A stretch of 64,000 bases of DNA from an uncultured delta proteobacterium (GTDB lineage Bacteria; Desulfobacterota; Binatia; UBA9968). The stretch's first letter is position 1. Every line of letters begins with the position of its first letter. Where the stretch lies: positions 1-64,000 of the forward strand of contig CAWFJP010000031.1 of the NCBI GenBank assembly GCA_963816145.1, in the 5' to 3' direction. A program made the translations under genes and the position numbers. Below the pieces are notes generated by a model that did no database searches, had not been told where the DNA came from, and saw only the letters and a program-made list of their open reading frames with translations. Below are positions 1 to 9,411 of this stretch, piece after piece.

Positions 1-31
1 CACAGGGTTGCCCCTACCGGATTTTGAGTCC
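1..31 (-). repeat. Partial copy of the tRNA-Leu 3' part (att-like site), truncated by the window start
   Basis: cacagggttgcccctaccggattttgagtcc is identical to 6596-6626 of the tRNA; sequence diverges just past the anticodon loop. Confidence 0.9.
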
Positions 32-87
32 TTTCTGTCTAATTTTAACTATTTGTAATTACGAAATAATTTCGTCCAGAATATGAA

Positions 88-142
88 ACTGTGTAAGAAA
101 ATGTGTAAGTCCACACTCCATCGAACAGCGTTGTTTCTAACT
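88..142. repeat. Conserved att-flanking block, copy A (TGTGTAAG-AAAA-TGTGTAAG; putative integrase arm-type sites)
   Basis: 51/56 identical to 3055-3110; 8-bp direct repeats at 90-97 and 102-109. Confidence 0.8.
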
Positions 143-620
143 ATCAAGACGACAACGCCGTCGTTCAATGCGCACCCGAACTGTCGACGCGTCGCGCACG
201 CCGACAGCACGCAACCTACTTTAGTGGATTTCGATACTGCCTTAATTTCTCCGACGACCGACTCTCGCCACTTTGAATCGTCGCGTCGATCAACTCAATC
301 CTACCGATTGATTTCTTTCCTCTTCCTCAGACGGCTGTCGGTAACCACTGGCTGACAACGGGGTATTGTTTGTTATGGCATACCTTTTCTTGACTTTGAT
401 CGTCCCTATGACAAGTATAAAACTAGTCACAGACATGAAATCGTGCATCGGGATGGATTGACCAACTCACGCTGCCGATGCTTTTTGTTGGTGCACGGGC
501 GTGAACCACACTCTGGAAATAGATTTCCGAGAAATTCGCTCTGCGCGTACACTTCCATATTAGCTACTAGGGTAGTGAATTTATTGACTTGGTTCTGATG
601 ATTAATGATTTCGCCATGCG

Positions 621-1829
621 TTGGTTGACGGACGAAGCATCGTGACAGAGACTCCAAAAAGCAGCACCCCACCTGTAGAGGCCGATCCGTCACAGAAACT
701 AGAAGTGCCGGCCGAACCGGTCCTCAACCACTGGGTCAAGGTCTGGGATTTGCCGACGCGACTTTTCCACTGGATGCTCGTGTTGCTGGTCGCGGTTGGC
801 GTGTTTACAGGGTTCGTTGCGCCCGAGTGGTGGATGGATGTTCACGTCTGGACCGGCTATGGGCTGGTTGCGCTCATGGTATTTCGACTGGTCTGGGGTA
901 TCTTCGGGCCTGAGTACAGCCGAGTTGTAAGCTTCATCTATCCGCCGCGAGACACGTTCGAACATCTACGGGGCCTGCTCCTGCTCCGACCGCCTCATTA
1001 CGTCGGCCACAACCCGACCGGCGCGTTGATGGTGTTCGCTCTGGCCGGCGTGCTTATCGCGTTGGTCGCGACCGGACTGCTGGTACTGGGCGGCGAGGAA
1101 CAACAGGGGCCGCTGGCGGCGGTCATCGGCTATTCGGTGGGCTCTGCAGCCAAGCAAGTCCACCTCTGGCTTGTGATTCTCTTGCTTGCGATGGTGACTT
1201 GCCACATCCTCGGCGTGGTCACGGAGAGCCTGCTTACCCATGATAATCTCGTGCGTGCCATCATCACGGGATGGAAGAAACTCCCGCCTGGAGCCCCTGT
1301 CCCGGCGCTACGTTCGGCGCGGCCCCTGCTCGCCGTCGCGGTCCTCGCGGTATTGGCGGCAGGGGCAGCAGCGACGCTCACGTGGTTGTCGCGGCTTCCC
1401 GCGCCGCGCAGTCTGCGGGTCCTGCCGGAGAACACCACGTATAAGAAGGAATGCGGCGTGTGTCACTACGCCTTCAATCCCAGTTTGCTTCCCGCTTCAT
1501 CATGGGCCGGGCTGATGGCCAACCTCGGCGAGCACTTTGGGGAAGACGCGAGCCTTGGCGGCTCCACTTCCAGCACCATCGCGGCATGGCTCGTGGCCAA
1601 TGCGGCCGAGACGTTCGACACGGAATCGGCAAACCGCTTCCGCATGGTCGCGCCGGATGAGCCTTACCGCATCACTTCCACCCCTTACTGGGTGAACAAG
1701 CACGCCGGCCTTGCGCCGGATGTTTTTGCGCGAAAGAGTGTGCAGAGCAAAGTGAATTGTAACGCGTGTCATCGTGACGCCGAGAGCGGTCGCTACGACG
1801 ACCAGGCCATCGCTATCCCGGAACAATAA
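621..1829 (+). CDS. Cytochrome b (Ni/Fe-hydrogenase b-type family) fused to a dihaem cytochrome c (DHC) domain
   Basis: VWDLPTRLFHW and GHNPTG cytochrome b motifs with TM helices; C-terminal CGVCH, HFGEDASL, CNACH; exact start uncertain. Confidence 0.88.
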   Translation: MVDGRSIVTETPKSSTPPVEADPSQKLEVPAEPVLNHWVKVWDLPTRLFHWMLVLLVAVGVFTGFVAPEWWMDVHVWTGYGLVALMVFRLVWGIFGPEYSRVVSFIYPPRDTFEHLRGLLLLRPPHYVGHNPTGALMVFALAGVLIALVATGLLVLGGEEQQGPLAAVIGYSVGSAAKQVHLWLVILLLAMVTCHILGVVTESLLTHDNLVRAIITGWKKLPPGAPVPALRSARPLLAVAVLAVLAAGAAATLTWLSRLPAPRSLRVLPENTTYKKECGVCHYAFNPSLLPASSWAGLMANLGEHFGEDASLGGSTSSTIAAWLVANAAETFDTESANRFRMVAPDEPYRITSTPYWVNKHAGLAPDVFARKSVQSKVNCNACHRDAESGRYDDQAIAIPEQ

Positions 1830-1850
1830 GAAACAGAGGAGTCAAACGCT

Positions 1851-2276
1851 ATGAAAGTATCACACGTGATAACGGTTATGGTGGTCGCCTGCGGCCTGCT
1901 GGCATCCTCGGAATCTGCCGCCGAACCGCGGCGAGATGCTATTCTTGCCGCGCTGCTTGCCCAGGCGAAAAAGGACGAGCCCGGTTTCACCCGATTCTCC
2001 GCCGAGCGCGGCGCTGCTTTTTACAAGGCCAACCACAAGGGCGGCAAACAGGGCACGGCGTCCTGTACGTCCTGTCATGGCAATTCGCCGCTTGATAAAG
2101 GAAAGACACGCGTTGGCAAAGACATCGAGCCGATGGCGGTGTCGAAAAATTCGGCACGCTACACCGACAAAGACGACGTCGAGAAGTGGTTTACCCGCAA
2201 CTGCAATGATGTTCTTGGGCGAGCCTGTACGGCCAAAGAGAAAGGCGACTTTCTCACCTACATGATGGGGCAATAA
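1851..2276 (+). CDS. Sphaeroides heme protein (SHP)-like / DUF1924 cytochrome c
   Basis: Signal peptide, SCTSCH, KWFTRNCNDVLGRACTAKEKGD tail; RBS GAGGAG. Confidence 0.85.
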   Translation: MKVSHVITVMVVACGLLASSESAAEPRRDAILAALLAQAKKDEPGFTRFSAERGAAFYKANHKGGKQGTASCTSCHGNSPLDKGKTRVGKDIEPMAVSKNSARYTDKDDVEKWFTRNCNDVLGRACTAKEKGDFLTYMMGQ

Positions 2277-2299
2277 TCCCCCCGGGATAAAAAGGAGAT

Positions 2300-2779
2300 A
2301 TGATAATGCGTACCAACATTGTGCTTTTGCTGCTGCTGGTGATCGGCGTTACGGCTTCGTCCGCCCAGCGGGATGAGCGGGTTCCGCCGGTTACGGACCC
2401 GGTGGTCCAGAAAGAATGCGGCAGTTGTCACATGACGTTCTCGCCGCAGTTTCTCCCGAAGCGTTCTTGGCAGAAGATCATGGATACGCTGTCTGATCAC
2501 TTCGGCGAGAACGCGAGTCTCGGCGAAGCCCAGCGTAAGGCCGTGCTCGACTATCTCCTCGCCAATGCCGCCGACAGCCCGAAGGCTGGCCGCGAAGGCC
2601 GAAGATTCGCGGAGAGTATTGCCTCAGGACAAACACCGTTACGCATTACGGAAATCCCCCGCTGGGTGAGGGAACACCGGGAAGTGCGGGCGGACAGGTG
2701 GAAGCGCCCCGAAGTCAAGTCAAAGGCGAATTGCCTCGCGTGTCACAAGAAGGCCGAGCAGGGTATTTATGAGGACTAA
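2300..2779 (+). CDS. Dihaem cytochrome c (DHC)
   Basis: Signal peptide, CGSCH, LPKRSW, HFGENASL, CLACH; RBS AGGAG. Confidence 0.88.
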   Translation: MIMRTNIVLLLLLVIGVTASSAQRDERVPPVTDPVVQKECGSCHMTFSPQFLPKRSWQKIMDTLSDHFGENASLGEAQRKAVLDYLLANAADSPKAGREGRRFAESIASGQTPLRITEIPRWVREHREVRADRWKRPEVKSKANCLACHKKAEQGIYED

Positions 2780-2946
2780 GCGTCCAGCTCCGGTACCACG
2801 GCCTGCTTCCGTCTCGAGGACGACAGCGCGACGATCGACTGACCGCTTTCGACTACGCAGACGAGCGTGCCTGCCAGTCCGTCGTTCCGTAGGCAAAGGC
2901 ACGGCAATTTCCCCTCGATCTTTTCAAGTGACTCCTGAGAATCAAG

Positions 2947-3003
2947 TGGTGCCGGAGGCGAGACTTGAACTCGCACAGGATTGCCCCTACCGGATTTTGA
3001 GTC
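2947..3003 (-). repeat. 57-bp duplicate of the tRNA-Leu 3' part (attR-like)
   Basis: 56/57 identical to 6569-6625 (mismatch at 2980); includes CCA end and begins just before the anticodon loop. Confidence 0.93.
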
Positions 3004-3054
3004 GGCTAGCTCTAACTATCTTGAATTATTGAATTTTGGCTCCATAGAAATGTG

Positions 3055-3110
3055 ACTGTGTAAGAAAATGTGTAAGTCTCACACTCCATCGGACGGCATT
3101 GTTTCTAGCT
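3055..3110. repeat. Conserved att-flanking block, copy B
   Basis: TGTGTAAG at 3057-3064 and 3069-3076; homologous to 88-142. Confidence 0.8.
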
Positions 3111-3212
3111 TTTACCATTCTCGAACCTTGCTGGCCAAATTTAGCGTAGATCTCTTGAACGCCTTTTACAGGGCATCCTGATCTTTGGCTGGACGCTGCT
3201 TAGATTTTTCTA

Positions 3213-3367
3213 ATGACTTGGATTGAAAAGGGCTGATCAGGTCATGTCGCCGACGCTGCGACTTCTCTCCGGCGACGCAAGAGTCTTACCTCTATGCCGT
3301 AACCTGAATCACCAAACAATATCGACGCTCCCCCGATCAGCTCGATAAGGAGCAGATCCGCTCGTAG
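3213..3367 (+). pseudogene. Remnant of a tyrosine-integrase N-terminal SAM-like domain
   Basis: Manual translation from 3263: FSPATQESYLYAVT*ITKQYRRSPDQLDKEQIRS*, resembling the Phage_int_SAM_4-type pattern S..TQ.SY..AV......RSPDQL..EQIR; two in-frame stops. Confidence 0.7.
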
Positions 3368-3435
3368 CCGATCAATGCCGCTGCAGACTTCACCAAATGG
3401 CGACACCTCTCGTCGTCGGCGCACCTGATTGAAAT

Positions 3436-6054
3436 CTAAGTCGCTTTATCAAACCTGAGGGTTCGTTTCACAAGTTCGGACGCAACGATGCAGCTGATTC
3501 CGGCTATCACCGCGATCACGAAGTCGATCCTGTGCAGTCGTCCGAATTTGAAGAGCTCCCGCAAAGTTGGGACGTAAAGAATAAGCGTCAGAAATGCGAG
3601 GGCCGCGCCCACGATCCACCATAGCGCGGTATTTCTTCGGCCCAGCGTCGTAAGGAGGCTTTGCAATCTCGATCTGCTGGTCAATATCAGTCCTAAGCTG
3701 GCAAAAACCATGACCGTGAACGCAAGCGCCCGCGCTTCCTCGGTGCTTTGGTCGTGATGCAGCCCGAACCCATAGACGGCTAGCAGCGCTACGAAAACGG
3801 CAGCTCCCTGCAGTGTGCCGAGCATGACTGTGCCTCGATCGAAAAGGGACGTTCCGGGCAGTCGCGGCGGCTTTCGCATGGTGTCGGCGTCCTCGGGCTC
3901 GGCCTCGAACACGATCGAGCAAGCGGGATCGATGATCAACTGCAGGAACAGAATATGTACCGGCAACAGCAGCAGGGGCCACCCAAGGGCTAATGGAACG
4001 AAAGACATGCCGACGATAGGAATGTGAACGGCAATCACGAAAGCGAAGGCTTTGCGCAGGTTGTCAAAGATCCTCCGCCCAAGGCGAACTGCGGTCACGA
4101 TCGAGGAGAAGTCGTCATCGAGCAGCACCAGATCAGCCGCTTCGCGCGCCACGTCGGTGCCACGTCCACCCATCGCTATGCCGATATGTGCGGACTTCAA
4201 CGCGGGGGCATCGTTCACGCCGTCGCCAGTCATAGCGACCACTTCGCCGTTCGCTTTTAGTGCGCTGACAATACGCAGCTTGTCTTCCGGCACCGCTCTG
4301 CAAAAGATATTCACGTCGCGGACACGGCACTGCAAGTCCGCGTCGGAGAGTTCGGCTAATTTCGAGCCTGAAATATAACGGTTCCATGACTTTATTCCGA
4401 CCTGGCGCGCGATGCTGCTGGCCGTTGCCGGATAATCGCCGGTAATCATGATGATCCGCATGCCAGCGGCATGACTTTCAGTTATAGCCGGCGGCACTGT
4501 CTCGCGTATCGGGTCGGCAAGCCCTATGAGCCCGAGGAATTCGAACGCAAAATCGTGCTGCGTCGTGGGCAATTCGTTCCGCTGGAAGGCCGCCTTTGCG
4601 ACGCCCAGAACTCGCAGTCCCTGCTGGGCCATCGCTGTTGCCTTTTGCGCAAGCTCTGTGATGTCATTAGCAACAAGGTGGCACAAATCGAATACTCCCT
4701 CAGGCGCACCCTTTGCAGCGATAACGTAATGGTGATGATCTGGCGACTGCCATACCCGCGACATGGCAAGTAGCTCGCGTGAAAGTGGGTATTCATTGAT
4801 CAGTGTCCAGTCAAGGTGGACGTGTTCGGTGCCGTCGAGCTTCTGGGAAGTGACTTTCTGGATCGCCTGCTCCATCGGATCGAAGGGATCGCGACGACCT
4901 GCAAGCATGCTGAACTCGAGCAGCTCGTGGAAACCATCCGGTAGTTCCGCCGTGTTCAACTCGCTGAGATCGAGCGTCTCGCCACGCGTGTGCATCCGGG
5001 CAAGCGTCATGCGGTTCTGCGTAAGTGTTCCGGTCTTGTCGACACAGAGCACTGTTGCTGATCCCAGCATTTCGAGCGCCGGAACCCGTCTCGTCAATAC
5101 GCGGCTCTGCGCCATCCGCCACGCGCCCAGGCCAAGGAAAAGCGTCAGCACGACCGGCAATTCTTCAGGCAAGATCGCCATCGCGAGCGTGATTCCGGCG
5201 AGAATCCCGTTCAGCCAGTCGCCGCGCGTCAAACCGTAGACGATAGCGACCAACAGACTGAGTCCCCCGCCGCACCAGGCAAGACGCTTGACTAACAGTG
5301 AAGTCTCCAATTGGATGCGCGTCGGCTCCGAGGCTACCTCAGCGAGTGCGTTGCCGATCCGGCCGAGCGCGGTGCGCTCCCCCGTGGCGAGCACCCGGGC
5401 GGTGCCCTTGCCTTGCACGACGAGCGATCCGGAAAAGACAAACGGCGATTCGCCACCCCCGGGCGGCCCCATTCGTTCCGGCATGCTTGGGGCGGGAAGC
5501 TTGGCCACTGGGACCGATTCACCCGTTAGCAAAGATTCGTCCGTCGCGAGATTTATCCCCGACAGGAGTGCGGCGTCGGCTGCCACACGGTCACCTTCGG
5601 AGAGGACGAGAAGATCTCCCTGCACGACTTCGCGTCCGGGTACGCGCAGCAGCTCGCCATCGCGGAATACCAGCGCACGCGGACTGGAAAGGTCGCGCAA
5701 AGCGGCGAGCGCGTGCTCGGTCTTGTGTTCCTGGACAAAAGTGATGCAGATAATTATCAGGACAAAGCCGAGAAGCATGAAGGCTTCGCCCCTGTCGCCG
5801 AGCAAGAGATAGATTGCGCCGCAGGCGATGAGCAGCAAAAACATTGGCTCGCATGCTATGCCAGCCGCAATGACAAGCAGGTTGCGCGGTCTTGCTGTGG
5901 GTAGTTCATTGAATCCGTCGCGCGCCAGTCGAGCGGCGGCTTCAGTTGCGGAGAGCCCCGTTGCAGGGTCGACGACCAGCATTACGTCTTGCCGATTCAT
6001 GGCTTTGTCTTCACGGTTCATCCCCTCAACCATTCGGTAACGTAAGATTCCCAT
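3436..6054 (-). CDS. Cation-translocating P-type ATPase (P2-like)
   Basis: LTGES, PEELP, DKTGTLT, TGD and GDGVNDAPAL motifs; GGAGG RBS before ATG at 6054. Confidence 0.93.
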   Translation of the reverse strand: MGILRYRMVEGMNREDKAMNRQDVMLVVDPATGLSATEAAARLARDGFNELPTARPRNLLVIAAGIACEPMFLLLIACGAIYLLLGDRGEAFMLLGFVLIIICITFVQEHKTEHALAALRDLSSPRALVFRDGELLRVPGREVVQGDLLVLSEGDRVAADAALLSGINLATDESLLTGESVPVAKLPAPSMPERMGPPGGGESPFVFSGSLVVQGKGTARVLATGERTALGRIGNALAEVASEPTRIQLETSLLVKRLAWCGGGLSLLVAIVYGLTRGDWLNGILAGITLAMAILPEELPVVLTLFLGLGAWRMAQSRVLTRRVPALEMLGSATVLCVDKTGTLTQNRMTLARMHTRGETLDLSELNTAELPDGFHELLEFSMLAGRRDPFDPMEQAIQKVTSQKLDGTEHVHLDWTLINEYPLSRELLAMSRVWQSPDHHHYVIAAKGAPEGVFDLCHLVANDITELAQKATAMAQQGLRVLGVAKAAFQRNELPTTQHDFAFEFLGLIGLADPIRETVPPAITESHAAGMRIIMITGDYPATASSIARQVGIKSWNRYISGSKLAELSDADLQCRVRDVNIFCRAVPEDKLRIVSALKANGEVVAMTGDGVNDAPALKSAHIGIAMGGRGTDVAREAADLVLLDDDFSSIVTAVRLGRRIFDNLRKAFAFVIAVHIPIVGMSFVPLALGWPLLLLPVHILFLQLIIDPACSIVFEAEPEDADTMRKPPRLPGTSLFDRGTVMLGTLQGAAVFVALLAVYGFGLHHDQSTEEARALAFTVMVFASLGLILTSRSRLQSLLTTLGRRNTALWWIVGAALAFLTLILYVPTLRELFKFGRLHRIDFVIAVIAGISCIVASELVKRTLRFDKAT

Positions 6055-6568
6055 AAATGCCTCCCTGAGTGAAATTGATTCAAGGAAGCTATCACTACCG
6101 TCAGGGGAAACAGTCAAAGGAAAGATCTATGAAAAAATAACGCCCGGAAAATTACCGAAATTGCATCGGTGGGAGCGGCCTCTCACCCACCGCGAAGCGG
6201 TTTAGTCCAATTCTTCAACGACTCGATCCTGCGAATTCAATTGGTGGCGTCGATCAGTTTAGTCGCTCGGTCGGAGGCGAAAAATGGACTTCTGATTCAA
6301 TCCACGTTCCTACGTTTGCGGTAGTCACATGAGGTCACTGGACCGGTTTACTAGTTGATCTATTTCCCGAATCGCTGTGATGTCATGGCAGGTAGTAATT
6401 TTCCAGATCGCTGCGGCTGAAGCGCCAGATGATTCCGATTTTTGTGCTTGGTACGATCCCTTTGCGATCCTCACTAGGCTGTGGCCTCTTTACGTCTTCG
6501 CAACGCGGATGGAGACGGGGTCAGAAAACTTTTTTCATTCGGTCTTAGGGTGATTCACGAGGAGCAAT

Positions 6569-6654
6569 TGGTGCCGGAGGCGAGACTTGAACTCGCACAG
6601 GGTTGCCCCTACCGGATTTTGAGTCCGGCGCGTCTGCCATTCCACCACTCCGGC
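6569..6654 (-). tRNA. tRNA-Leu(CAA)
   Basis: GCCGGAGTGGTGGAATGGCAGACGCG-CCGGA-CTCAAAA-TCCGG-long variable arm-GCGAGTTCAAGTCTCGC-CTCCGGC-ACCA; cloverleaf with encoded CCA. Confidence 0.97.
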
Positions 6655-6720
6655 ACGGACGTGATTGCAGACCCATATAAATAACCAACCATCGATTGGG
6701 ATACAAGAGGTGTGCGGCCT

Positions 6721-6789
6721 AGGACTGAGTTGGGTAGCACTGAGGACTGAGCGACAAAACTCACACCTCAGCACTCAAAACTCAGTCCT
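6721..6789. repeat. Palindromic element built from short ACTGAG/CTCAG units
   Basis: aggactgagt ... actcagtcct inverted ends with internal short units; lies at the radA 3' end. Confidence 0.65.
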
Positions 6790-8151
6790 TAAAACAGCAG
6801 TTTCCAACACTCCTGGATCGAACCGACCGCGGCCAGTTTCGGATGCTTGATATGTTTTAGCTGGGCGACGTTGCTGGTCGGCAGGATGCAGCGTTCGAAG
6901 CCGAGTTTGCCGGCTTCTTTGACTCGGGTTTCCGCCTGGGAGATGCCGCGGACTTCGCCGGCGAGGCCGACTTCGCCGAAGAATACGGTTTTGGCATCGA
7001 GGACGGCCTCGCGGCTGCTCGACGCGATGGCGGCGATGACGCCGAGATCGACCGCCGGCTCGTCGACATGGACGCCGCCGGCGACGTTGACGAAAATATC
7101 TTGGTCGAACAGTTTGGCGCCCATTTTCTTTTCCAACACGGCGACCAAGAGTGCGACGCGATTGTGGTCGACGCCGATGGTGGTGCGCCGCGGCACGGCG
7201 AGAAATGACCGGCTGACCAGCGCCTGCAACTCGACCAAGATCGGCCGGGTTCCTTCGATGCTGCAAACTACCGCCGAGCCGGGCACTTGCAGCGGCCGCT
7301 CCATTAAAAATATTTCCGAGGGATTGCTGACCTCGGCGAGGCCGACTTCTTTCATCTCGAATACGCCGATCTCGTTGGTCGAGCCGAAGCGGTTTTTGAC
7401 GGCGCGCAGGATTCTAAAACTATGGCCGCGCTCGCCTTCGAAATAGAGCACCGTGTCGACCATATGTTCGAGCAAACGCGGCCCGGCGATGGCGCCGTCT
7501 TTGGTCACATGGCCGATCAAAAACGTCGTTAAGCCGGTTTTTTTCGCCAGCACGATGATCGAGCCGGAGGTTTCGCGCACCTGGGCGATGCTACCGGGCG
7601 CGGAGGGGATCACCGACGAGAACATTGTCTGGACCGAGTCGATCACCAGCAGGCTGGGTTTTATTTTCTTCACATGCTCGAGGATGCGCTCCAGCGAAGT
7701 TTCGCTGAGCACGAGCAGATTGGGCGCATCGACGCCGAGTCGTTCGGCGCGCATTTTGATTTGCCGCTGGGATTCCTCGCCGGAAACGTAGAGGCAAGTG
7801 AGCCCCTTTTGACTGATTGCGGCGAAGGCTTGCAACAGCAATGTCGATTTGCCGATGCCGGGATCACCGCCAATGAGGATCACCGAGCCGGGCACCAGCC
7901 CGCCGCCGAGGACACGGTCGAACTCGCCGATGCCCGACTGCACACGGCCTTCTTCGGTGGTGTCGATGTCACCGATGGAGGTGGGCTCTTCCTTGCTGCC
8001 GAGGCTCAAGCTCGCCGCGGGTAGAGGTGGCTTTTTCGAAATGCTCCTCGGCAAAAGTATTCCACTGATTGCAATCGGGACATTTGCCGAGCCACTTGGC
8101 CGATTGGTAGCCGCAATTCTGGCAGGCGTAAACGGACTTCGCTTTGGCCAT
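6789..8151 (-). CDS. radA: DNA repair protein RadA/Sms (one frameshift near 8010)
   Basis: [22 protein letters not shown] zinc finger in one frame; [10 protein letters not shown] and KNRFG in another. Confidence 0.93.
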
Positions 8152-8229
8152 GGTGGGTTTTTTATAGCAGGAAAGCGGGCGACATCGCCAGGTTGATAAT
8201 TGTAACGTTGATGCAATAATTCGACATCC

Positions 8230-9411
8230 ATGCGCGCCGATTTTATCGCTGCCGAGTTGCAATCGGTTAAAGATGCCGGGCTCTATCGTCAACTACGCCT
8301 CGTGGACGGCGACCAAGGCCCGACGTTGACGCTCGATGGCCGCGAGGTGATCAACTTCTCGTCAAATAACTATCTCGGCATCGCCAACCATCCGGCCTTG
8401 GCGGCGGCGGCGAAGGAAGCGATCGACCGCTATGGTTGCGGCTCGGGAGCGTCGCGGCTGATTTCCGGCAACATGACGCTACACGAGGAGTTGGAAGCTA
8501 AGCTGGCCGAATTCAAAAACACCGAAGCGGCCTTGGTGTTCAACTCCGGTTTTCAAGCCAATGTCGGCATCCTGTCTACCTTAACAGACAAAGGCGACGT
8601 CATTCTGAGCGATTCACTCAATCATGCGAGCATCATCGACGGCTGCCGTTTGTCGAAGGCGCAAACTTTCGTCTACGCGCATGGCGATCTCGCCGCCCTC
8701 GAAACCTGCCTTAAACAAGCAGCGCCGGCGCGCCGCCGGTTGATCGTGACCGAGACCATCTTCAGCATGGACGGTGATCAAGCGCCGCTGGCAGAGATCG
8801 TCGAACTCGCTGAGAAGTATGACGCCATGGTGATGGTCGACGAAGCCCATGGAACCGGTGTGTTCGGCGCCAACGGCGCCGGTGTGGTCGCCAAATTGGG
8901 ATTGGCGCCGCGGGTGTTGATTCAAATGGGCACGCTGGGCAAGGCGCTGGGCGGCTTCGGCGCCTATGTCGCCGGCAGCCGGTCTCTGCGCGATTTGCTG
9001 ATCAACCGCTGCCGCAGTTTTATTTTTACGACTTCGCTGCCGCCGGCGGTGATGGCGATGACGCTGGCGGCCATCGATCTGGTACAAAATGAGCCGCAAC
9101 GGCGCGAGACGCTGCGGCACAATTGCCAGAAATTAAAGCTCGGCCTGAGCCGGCTCGGATTTGAGTTAGGGAAAAGCGAGAGTCCGATCTTGCCGCTGAT
9201 CGTCGGCGACGCGGCGCGTTGCATGGCATTGTCGGCGGCGTTGCTCGACCGCGGCGTGTTCGCCCAAGGCATCCGCCCGCCGACGGTGCCGGTGGGAACT
9301 TCACGCTTGCGCATCACGGTGATGGCGACCCATAGCGACGCTCAGATCGATCGAGCATTGAACGTCTTCGAGGAAATCAAACGCCAATGGCCACCTACCA
9401 CGACAAGTTAA
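8230..9411 (+). CDS. bioF: 8-amino-7-oxononanoate synthase
   Basis: [40 protein letters not shown]. Confidence 0.93.

Follow-up and report, generated by a model that had tools for sequence, protein, structure and literature searches.

The 64,000-nt window analysed here (positions 1-64000 of contig C31) belongs to G000, a metagenome-assembled genome (MAG) of the Binatia comprising 7.82 Mb in 31 contigs (completeness 99.5%, contamination 6.7%). At the left end of the window, small islands without an intact integrase gene are stacked beside a tRNA-Leu(CAA) gene and separated by copies of the 3' part of that tRNA; the stack continues on a second contig, C13, to give four units (A to D). The most probable history, in our judgement, is serial site-specific accretion at tRNA-Leu(CAA) of islands that are now non-autonomous and resemble cis-mobilizable elements (CIMEs). 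This is a known way of island growth, here unusually clean. Genomes, contigs and loci are cited by G, C and L numbers.

The only tRNA that ARAGORN finds in the window is tRNA-Leu(CAA), on the minus strand. The features that frame the two units of the window are the following.

1-31, minus strand: tRNA-Leu 3'-part fragment ending at the contig end, distal junction of unit C (31/31 identical to 6596-6626)
2928-2946, minus strand: tRNA-proximal flank of unit C, resembling those of unit D and of a unit on G014:C8
2947-3003, minus strand: tRNA-Leu 3'-part fragment, 57 nt with one mismatch, junction of units D and C (repeat comparison)
6550-6568, minus strand: tRNA-proximal flank of unit D (repeat comparison)
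6569-6654, minus strand: intact tRNA-Leu(CAA), the putative attachment site (ARAGORN, Rfam)
6789-8231, minus strand: radA/sms, conserved chromosomal gene next to the tRNA on its 5' side and boundary of the array (Pfam; synteny at 77-88% in nine relatives' loci)

An earlier note, made from the letters of the window, had described this tRNA together with a 57-nt, one-mismatch copy and a third copy cut by the window edge, and had proposed that both copies break beside the anticodon loop and bound units of about 2.9 and 3.6 kb. ARAGORN and repeat comparison confirm the gene and its copies, and in both copies the identity to the tRNA ends at the 5' edge of the anticodon loop (after GAGTC or GAGTCC). 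The units measure 2915 and 3565 nt. The third copy is real (31/31 identical), but the edge that cuts it is actually the end of the contig. The repeat reaches 19 nt past the 3' end of the tRNA (2928-2946 versus 6550-6568), and the full 76 nt are 91% identical. When positions 1-7000 were searched against Rfam at E up to 0.1, the tRNA alone was matched; the conserved block of units C and D described below corresponds to no RNA described there.

The other half of the 1-31 fragment forms the end of C13 (C13:235676-235733, a 58-nt fragment), so that the ends of C13 and C31 share the same tRNA fragment with an exact overlap of 30 nt. Two further 3'-part copies lie on C13 (230436-230491 and 224614-224670), and no further tRNA-Leu fragment was found on any other contig of G000. 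The suspicion that the array continues leftward was thus borne out by two more units, and the total is four fragment copies and the intact tRNA. The array reads flank0, A (5765 nt), B (5184 nt), C (2915 nt), D (3565 nt), tRNA, radA, and occupies 17.6 kb. We regard the C13-C31 join as supported because it follows by elimination and because in G014 and G019 the C13 flank and the radA flank border a single tRNA-Leu locus: the genes to the left of the last C13 copy show synteny with those beyond the tRNA-Leu islands of these two genomes, and the radA side of their loci matches the window. All four copies are direct repeats that start from the anticodon loop (55-58 nt, 94.6-100% identity), which supports the earlier proposal of serial insertion at that loop. 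The G+C content of units A and B is 0.507 and 0.532, respectively, and that of the flanks 0.563 and 0.574.

A 35-nt pattern of the 3' part, searched in 41 genomes including G000, was present once in 22 of them, twice in G007 and G017, three times in G014 and five times in G000; 15 genomes gave no match. The other tRNAs of G000 (49 tRNAs in all) have at most two extra partial copies each, and most have none or one. Downstream of tRNA-Leu, the sequence differs in nearly every relative of the genus, as at a hotspot. The oldest fragment (C13a) has the GAACCCGC allele that other relatives show, which would follow if 3' halves carried by elements had replaced the original half of the tRNA; the 3' half of the intact tRNA-Leu(CAA) is probably of element origin.

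In G019 this tRNA-Leu locus holds a 7.5-kb stretch of defence-like genes (L016 2568-9414) that encode a trypsin-TIR-TPR protein, a metallophosphatase, Fic and GST. No tRNA-fragment repeat was detected in that stretch.

Next to the tRNA copies stand conserved blocks, which in the window are as follows.

83-142, plus strand: C/D-type arm block of unit C, with TGTGTAAG at 90 and 102 (12-nt period)
3050-3110, plus strand: C/D-type arm block of unit D, with TGTGTAAG at 3057 and 3069

The block lies on the higher-coordinate (unit) side of each tRNA copy. Positions 83-111 and 3050-3078 agree at 93%, and 112-142 and 3080-3110 at 87%; a conserved block with a direct repeat inside each unit, as had been suspected, is therefore real. 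In unit C, a 22-mer of the block begins 68 nt past the start of the core word TTTTGAG; the spacer between word and 22-mer measures 61 nt there, against 55 nt in unit D. The TGTGTAAG octamer occurs only 41 times on both strands of the 7.8-Mb genome, and a literature search for it returned unrelated papers only.

Together with the blocks of C13, two sets of candidate arm-type sites can be defined. The C/D family consists of the distal block and a short proximal flank common to units C and D. In the A/B family, 130 nt beyond the tRNA fragment are shared at 92-93%, and the cargo of A and that of B are unrelated. In every arm a direct repeat of 7-8 nt occurs twice, with a period of 11-12 nt; on C13 these doublets are GGGCACA (224777/224788), GGCRCAA (230361/230372 and 235601/235612) and AGTTAAAG (230600/230611). 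The layout is as expected of arm-type integrase-binding sites, and the repeats may well be bound by an integrase. The arm-like character ascribed to the block in the earlier note is further supported by its usual distance from the core (-68, -69 or -64), which recurs in 24 of 37 independent loci. We also considered that the proximal arm of A/B might be native chromosomal flank, and rejected this, since hardly any two relatives agree in their downstream flanks and flank0 of G000 differs as well.

No source of integrase was found in or around the array. A PF00589 scan of the whole genome gave 11 matches, on C4, C11, C14 and C15, and none on C13 or C31. A Pfam scan of the larger open reading frames (ORFs) of all four units revealed no recombinase of any class, and tblastn searches of the array with the integrase of G007:C104 and with a P4-like integrase of G014:C8 produced chance-level matches only. 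These scans support the view that the units hold no intact integrase. The broader claim, that they hold no intact integrase, transposase or phage gene, stands for intact integrase and transposase genes (Pfam), but unit D does carry two fragments of an integrase of 278-aa type. Two places in which an integrase had been expected did not yield one: at the array's distal end, the C13 flank is syntenic chromosome with no PF00589 match, and elsewhere in G000 the best homologue of the cognate type (on C11) is 23-30% identical and has an in-frame TAG.

In relatives, by contrast with G000, an A/B-type element with its integrase can be seen, together with stages of its decay. We searched the G007:C104 integrase in 31 genomes of the genus, G000 included. 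In G007:C104, a 366-aa tyrosine integrase reads toward tRNA-Leu and ends 84 nt from its 3' end, and an A/B-type arm lies between the two (87% over 60 nt). Beside the 3' end of tRNA-Leu in G017 and G018 there are C-terminal stubs of 82 and 72 aa, again reading toward it; that of G017 is 69% identical to residues 296-362 of the G007:C104 integrase. G060, of another genus, has a 150-aa C-terminal stub at the same place and in the same orientation. G004 has an A/B-like flank and, 4.3-4.9 kb from the tRNA, DNA that is 72-79% identical to the adenylation genes of unit A; no integrase match was found on its tRNA contig. Because three other relatives keep only stubs of 72-150 aa, units A and B look like deletion derivatives of integrase-bearing elements. 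The earlier note had set such derivatives against its own proposal; relatives do show them for the A/B type, which lies outside the window, but for the C/D units inside it an integrase-bearing form was found nowhere.

The C/D arm is widespread. A 23-nt pattern of the block, with up to three mismatches, has 16 occurrences in 11 of 90 genomes of the family (9 of 23 genera), and its reversed control has none; one of the 11, G062 (locus L065), is flagged unpublished. The exact 22-mer occurs at 10 loci in a species-representative genome collection and on 27 metagenome contigs, for which the chance expectation of one exact 22-mer on both strands of 596 Gb is about 0.07 by our own estimate. Going by record titles, from which all phylum labels of distant MAGs are taken, the genomes include Acidobacteriota, Terriglobia, Micavibrio and Gammaproteobacteria. 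TTTTGAG stands 68 nt upstream of the 22-mer in 21 of 37 loci, 69 nt in two and 64 nt in one. In two others an intact tRNA-Leu(CAA) adjoins the block, with TTTTGAG at -91 and -115. The word was not found in the remaining 11, three of which have too little flank and one a 1-nt deletion in the word; in another of the 11, L075, the block adjoins an intact tRNA-Leu(TAA), and the loop of this tRNA is without TTTTGAG. The gene just inside the block varies (cupin-CMD, solute-binding proteins, Fic, methyltransferases, FUR-katG, toxin-antitoxin pairs).

Nine of the C/D-type units are complete: C and D themselves, one on G014:C9, two on G014:C8, three blocks of G060 and one in a Terriglobia MAG; a further 28 loci are partial, and most block loci show the distal end only. 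The G014:C9 unit is 13.4 kb long and contains insertion sequence (IS) elements, an RND efflux pump and MerR, and the three blocks of G060 lie in one 24-kb array. On G014:C8 (L020), a 7-kb unit is bounded by a 19-nt core repeat and is not at a tRNA-Leu gene; it carries a cupin, a beta-propeller/cupredoxin protein, an ECF sigma/anti-sigma pair and an MFS transporter, and its neighbours are tRNA-Ala and a P4-like integrase. That integrase has tRNA-Ala(GGC) on one side and, on the other, a perfect inverted copy of 27 nt of this tRNA (L020 8294-9798), and the C/D-type unit follows directly.

The Terriglobia locus (L102) is the most informative of these. It runs from a tRNA-Leu 5'-half fragment through 12.3 kb to a 435-aa integrase, and after 16 nt to an intact tRNA-Leu(CAA); there follow a 6.5-kb unit, the block and a 58-nt stretch that repeats the 3' part of the tRNA perfectly. 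The five ORFs of the 6.5-kb unit that were scanned with Pfam, the largest included, all encode ATP-synthase subunits, that is, an extra operon. Over 369 aa, the 435-aa integrase shares 32% identity with that of G007:C104; this likeness, together with its position on the 5' side, argues that the same integrase family uses the anticodon loop from either side, and in two phyla. This occupancy of tRNA-Leu(CAA) on both sides is seen from L102 7667-15628 together with G106:C2:312663-312708.

Fragments of the tRNA-Leu 5' half also occur in relatives' arrays (L042 12313-12341, 15233-15261 and 16394-16429; L043 3910-3938; L023 5206-5253; L020 17032-17062), and G018 has a 37-aa integrase stub directly upstream of tRNA-Leu. 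These fragments and the stub indicate that elements supplying a 5' half also use tRNA-Leu in Binatia.

Genes for a FUR-family regulator and a katG-like catalase-peroxidase lie beside the C/D block at L045 14101-18288 (G056, split), at L047 11279-13327 (G048) and at L093, in two genera of the family and on one metagenome contig. A katG-like gene is also present in the array of G060, of a third genus, about 1.5 kb outside the nearest block (L043 775-2961). In the Micavibrio MAG (L103 3560-3720), the exact 22-mer stands beside a tRNA-Ser(UGA)-like fragment rather than tRNA-Leu, and MobA/MobL relaxase and copper-resistance genes are among those to the right of the block. We had taken this locus for a complete unit and dropped it, as the fragment beside the block is no repeat of the nearby tRNA-Ser.

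We think it likely that these arrangements arose as follows. The anticodon loop of tRNA-Leu(CAA) would serve as the attachment site for elements with tyrosine integrases, and this lineage would have seen it used four times or more. Every new arrival would recombine at the loop and bring a new 3' half for the tRNA, displacing outward the 3' half that had been there together with all older units, so that A would be the oldest unit. All four are by now non-autonomous, with core and arms but no integrase, and the C/D units would once have had, or borrowed, an integrase. At present they would be fixed cargo that the matching integrase of a new element could still move, a CIME-type state. The published tycheposon and CIME/accretion models describe the same process, and we count this in favour of accretion.

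Several observations weigh against this account. The C13-C31 join, made by elimination and synteny, has no spanning read. The arms of A and B both end at 130 nt, which would be unexpected from two independent deletions, and no integrase remnant was detected in units A, B or C. Not one of the nine complete C/D-type units has an intact integrase, and no integrase-bearing C/D-type element was found; among the 37 loci, only L065 has an integrase gene within 2 kb of the block, and this one is truncated and of the IS91-associated type. So uniform a loss is not what random decay predicts. Finally, the perfect 58-nt repeats of the Terriglobia unit, which lacks an integrase, suggest recent insertion of a unit that was already integrase-less.

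These points lend some weight to an alternative that we hold to be possible but clearly the less probable: the C/D units, and perhaps A/B, might be integrase-free by design, consisting of core, arm and genes and moved in trans by the integrase of a helper that recognizes the same core. The TGTGTAAG-doublet arm might then, tentatively, mark integrase-free cargo modules shared across phyla, each made up of core, a spacer of about 61 nt, arm and 3-13 kb of adaptive genes. It is conceivable, if doubtful, that borrowed helper integrases insert and excise such modules at the loop of tRNA-Leu(CAA), making the tRNA a site of cassette stacking, and that this site is the tRNA-island counterpart of an integron array with no resident integrase, though we would not bet on either. 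Modules of this kind would spread between phyla and function like integron cassettes or satellites. The absence of an intact integrase from all nine complete units speaks for the idea, as do the recurrence of the 22-mer at genome loci across phyla named in record titles and on metagenome contigs, its usual distance to TTTTGAG and the varied cargo that abuts the block. The Terriglobia ATP-synthase unit has perfect repeats and, in the neighbouring 435-aa integrase, a possible helper; the G014:C8 unit has its 19-nt core repeat away from any tRNA-Leu gene; and the cargo of unit C is imported. G000, however, has no helper or cognate integrase. No circular or attP form was seen: viral contigs gave no match to a 20-mer of the block, and core plus block had no match among PLSDB plasmids. 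The 28 partial loci could have an integrase at their far end, and an exact-match search picks recent copies; islands that survive are, besides, expected to be those that have lost the integrase. Moreover, the A/B-type relatives show plain decay, and unit D contains IS debris. Were trans-mobilization rather than survivorship the cause, soil bacteria would generally exchange genes by way of small integrase-less modules, which would escape any island-finding tool that relies on an integrase.

A very improbable alternative is that the fragments and their stacking are an assembly artefact, strain variants of a metagenome bin having been mis-joined. The contamination of 6.7% and a contig break exactly at the repeat would fit this. 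Three of the four junctions, however, lie inside contigs with unique flanks on both sides; G060, of another genus and independently assembled, has a comparable multi-copy array on a 3.6-Mb contig; and in G014 an island of one unit stands at this tRNA, with two C/D-type units stacked in another place. Logan contigs from four soil runs (X1-X4, one study; 200-600 nt, depth about 3) match parts of units C and D with 0-3 differences, and one of 350 nt covers 2950-3299; the runs may include the source sample. No joint between att sites, empty site or circle junction was listed for these contigs, which at such length and depth speaks neither for nor against mobility.

The integron-like array suggested in the earlier note is not supported, and least probable of all is a platform in which an integrase resident by the tRNA or at the far end of the array would serially insert promoterless cassettes: small tandem units with conserved junction elements, and the Terriglobia integrase 16 nt upstream of its tRNA, recall such a platform, but no integrase adjoins the site here (5' of the tRNA comes radA, and the far end borders syntenic chromosome), the junctions consist of tRNA fragments with two arm families and are not attC-like, and cargo lies on both strands (unit C genes plus, unit D gene minus) behind upstream spacers of 450-480 nt that could hold promoters of their own. 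The Terriglobia integrase was also considered as a resident one and rejected, since the 5'-half repeat 12.3 kb upstream marks a separate element of its own.

In integrons, the recombinase is encoded outside the cassettes, with intI beside the site, attC hairpin sites and a common promoter and orientation. The array resembles them as a linear stack of small units of unrelated cargo, each ending in a conserved recombination element, but has no intI-like gene beside the site (its neighbours are radA, 5' of the tRNA, and, beyond the oldest unit, chromosomal flank of amidohydrolase type), no attC hairpins and no common promoter or orientation, and its junctions are tRNA fragments of 55-58 nt. Classical tRNA islands and prophages integrate in Campbell fashion through tyrosine integrases that cross over in the anticodon loop. 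Here we find the same direct repeat from the anticodon loop to the 3' end, the same replacement of the 3' half and arms with repeated short motifs, but the self-encoded integrase beside the att end is absent from all four units.

CIMEs are attL/attR-flanked elements that accrete at the sites of integrative and conjugative or integrative and mobilizable elements (ICEs/IMEs), such as the ICESt1/ICESt3 family of Streptococcus (PMC5704250). Measured against that account, the units are alike in keeping attL-/attR-type ends with no integration or transfer genes and in standing in tandem at the 3' part of the target gene, and for A/B a route of decay from integrase-bearing elements is visible. The flanking sites are present: the A/B arms match the spacer of G007:C104, and C/D has core and conserved block at both junction types. 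Integration and transfer genes are absent apart from the IS91-type fragments in unit D (Pfam, PF00589, tblastn). In the A/B series the integrase shrinks from 366 aa (G007:C104) to 150 (G060), 82 (G017), 72 (G018) and none; for C/D, no parent was found in nine complete and 28 partial loci. The array differs from the CIMEs of that account in having four units in a row of 2.9-5.8 kb each, in that its host, a soil MAG of Binatia type, has no ICE or IME as a partner, and in that for the C/D type no integrase-bearing parent was found.

Prochlorococcus islands driven by tycheposons are described as growing by serial tRNA integration in which newer arrivals push older ones outward (bioRxiv 10.1101/2020.12.28.424599). 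By that description they share with our array the partial tRNA copies between units and the predominance of integrase-less ecological cargo; remnants there are said to lack clear boundaries, whereas here each unit has a crisp core and arms, and phylum and habitat differ. Pfam detected no integrase and no replication domain of the primase/helicase type in the four units. The tandem ssrA-specific islands of Dehalococcoides (PMC3146451) are similar in being site-specific islands at a gene for a small stable RNA.

The cargo of the two units in the window, and the rearranged parts of unit D, are as follows.

621-1829, plus strand: cytochrome b561-dihaem cytochrome c fusion, unit C (Pfam)
1851-2276, plus strand: DUF1924, unit C (Pfam)
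2300-2779, plus strand: dihaem cytochrome c (DHC), unit C (Pfam)
3260-3361, plus strand: pseudogene fragment, codons 16-49 with a stop, of the 278-aa integrase type (tblastn, 59% over 34 aa)
3436-6018, minus strand: body of a P-type cation ATPase, unit D (Pfam E1-E2_ATPase, Cation_ATPase_N/C, Hydrolase)
6019-6210, minus strand: first 12 codons (MGILRYRMVEGM) and about 155 nt of upstream region of the 278-aa integrase type (alignment to C14, translations)

Pfam confirms the two cargo assignments made earlier, a cytochrome module in the first unit and a P-type ATPase in the second. Outside its arms, unit C has no DNA match in 89 other genomes of the family, and its cargo was therefore probably imported. 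The closest family paralogues of the unit D ATPase are only 64-65% identical. Unit A encodes two adenylation-PCP proteins (like nonribosomal peptide synthetases), and unit B a 1158-aa subtilase with Calx-beta and DUF4214 domains, paralogues of which are 76-87% identical on contig C4 of G000. Four layers with intact junctions and unrelated adaptive cargo make the array an unusually legible record of tRNA-linked island growth in Binatia, an uncultured soil lineage for which we know of no description of mobile elements, though no literature search was aimed at this; further afield, cargo directly adjoins the C/D arm in MAGs whose labels name four or more other phyla or classes, and the arm was never seen with an integrase of its own.

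Unit D has been rearranged. The fragment at 3260-3361 (tblastn E of 3e-8 against the array and 6e-6 genome-wide) sits directly past the stop codon of the ATPase, whose reading frame starts with MGILRYRMVEGM, the first 12 codons of the integrase fused in frame. This anatomy suggests an inversion with one breakpoint in codons 12-16 that left the ATPase flanked by oppositely oriented pieces of one gene; the ATPase would now read from the integrase's start and come under its start signals. The 6019-6210 region has DNA matches of 74-85% in many genomes of the family, and on C14 of G000 itself, G060:C4, G017:C18 and G056:C35 the match adjoins an integrase gene. We asked whether the fragments could be the island's own integrase. 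L065 has a gene of the same 278-aa type after the block, in favour of this; the idea is weakened by the intact copy on C14, which precedes an IS91-type Y2 transposase, and by the multiple copies of the integrase upstream region at places that have no block. Such IS debris and rearrangement are typical of ageing islands.

The C14 copy belongs to an IS91-type pair (G000:C14:677203-679396, L006), in which the 278-aa integrase is followed by a 397-aa Y2 transposase (Y2_Tnp, Zn_Tnp_IS91). The region of about 190 nt upstream of this integrase is 74-85% conserved at many places in the family, and at the three places checked in other genomes it adjoins an integrase gene of 285-310 aa. IS91-family elements can presumably carry an upstream integrase gene, as this pair does; a literature search on IS91 with an integrase returned nothing usable.

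Single partial copies also accompany other tRNAs of G000, on contigs C3, C10, C15 and C30: about 11 kb from tRNA-Arg(TCG), 2.6 kb from tRNA-Lys(TTT), 13 kb from tRNA-Ser(CGA) and 66 kb from tRNA-Glu(CTC). They suggest ordinary islands. C15 also has a 5'-half copy of tRNA-Arg(CCT) near integrase fragments.

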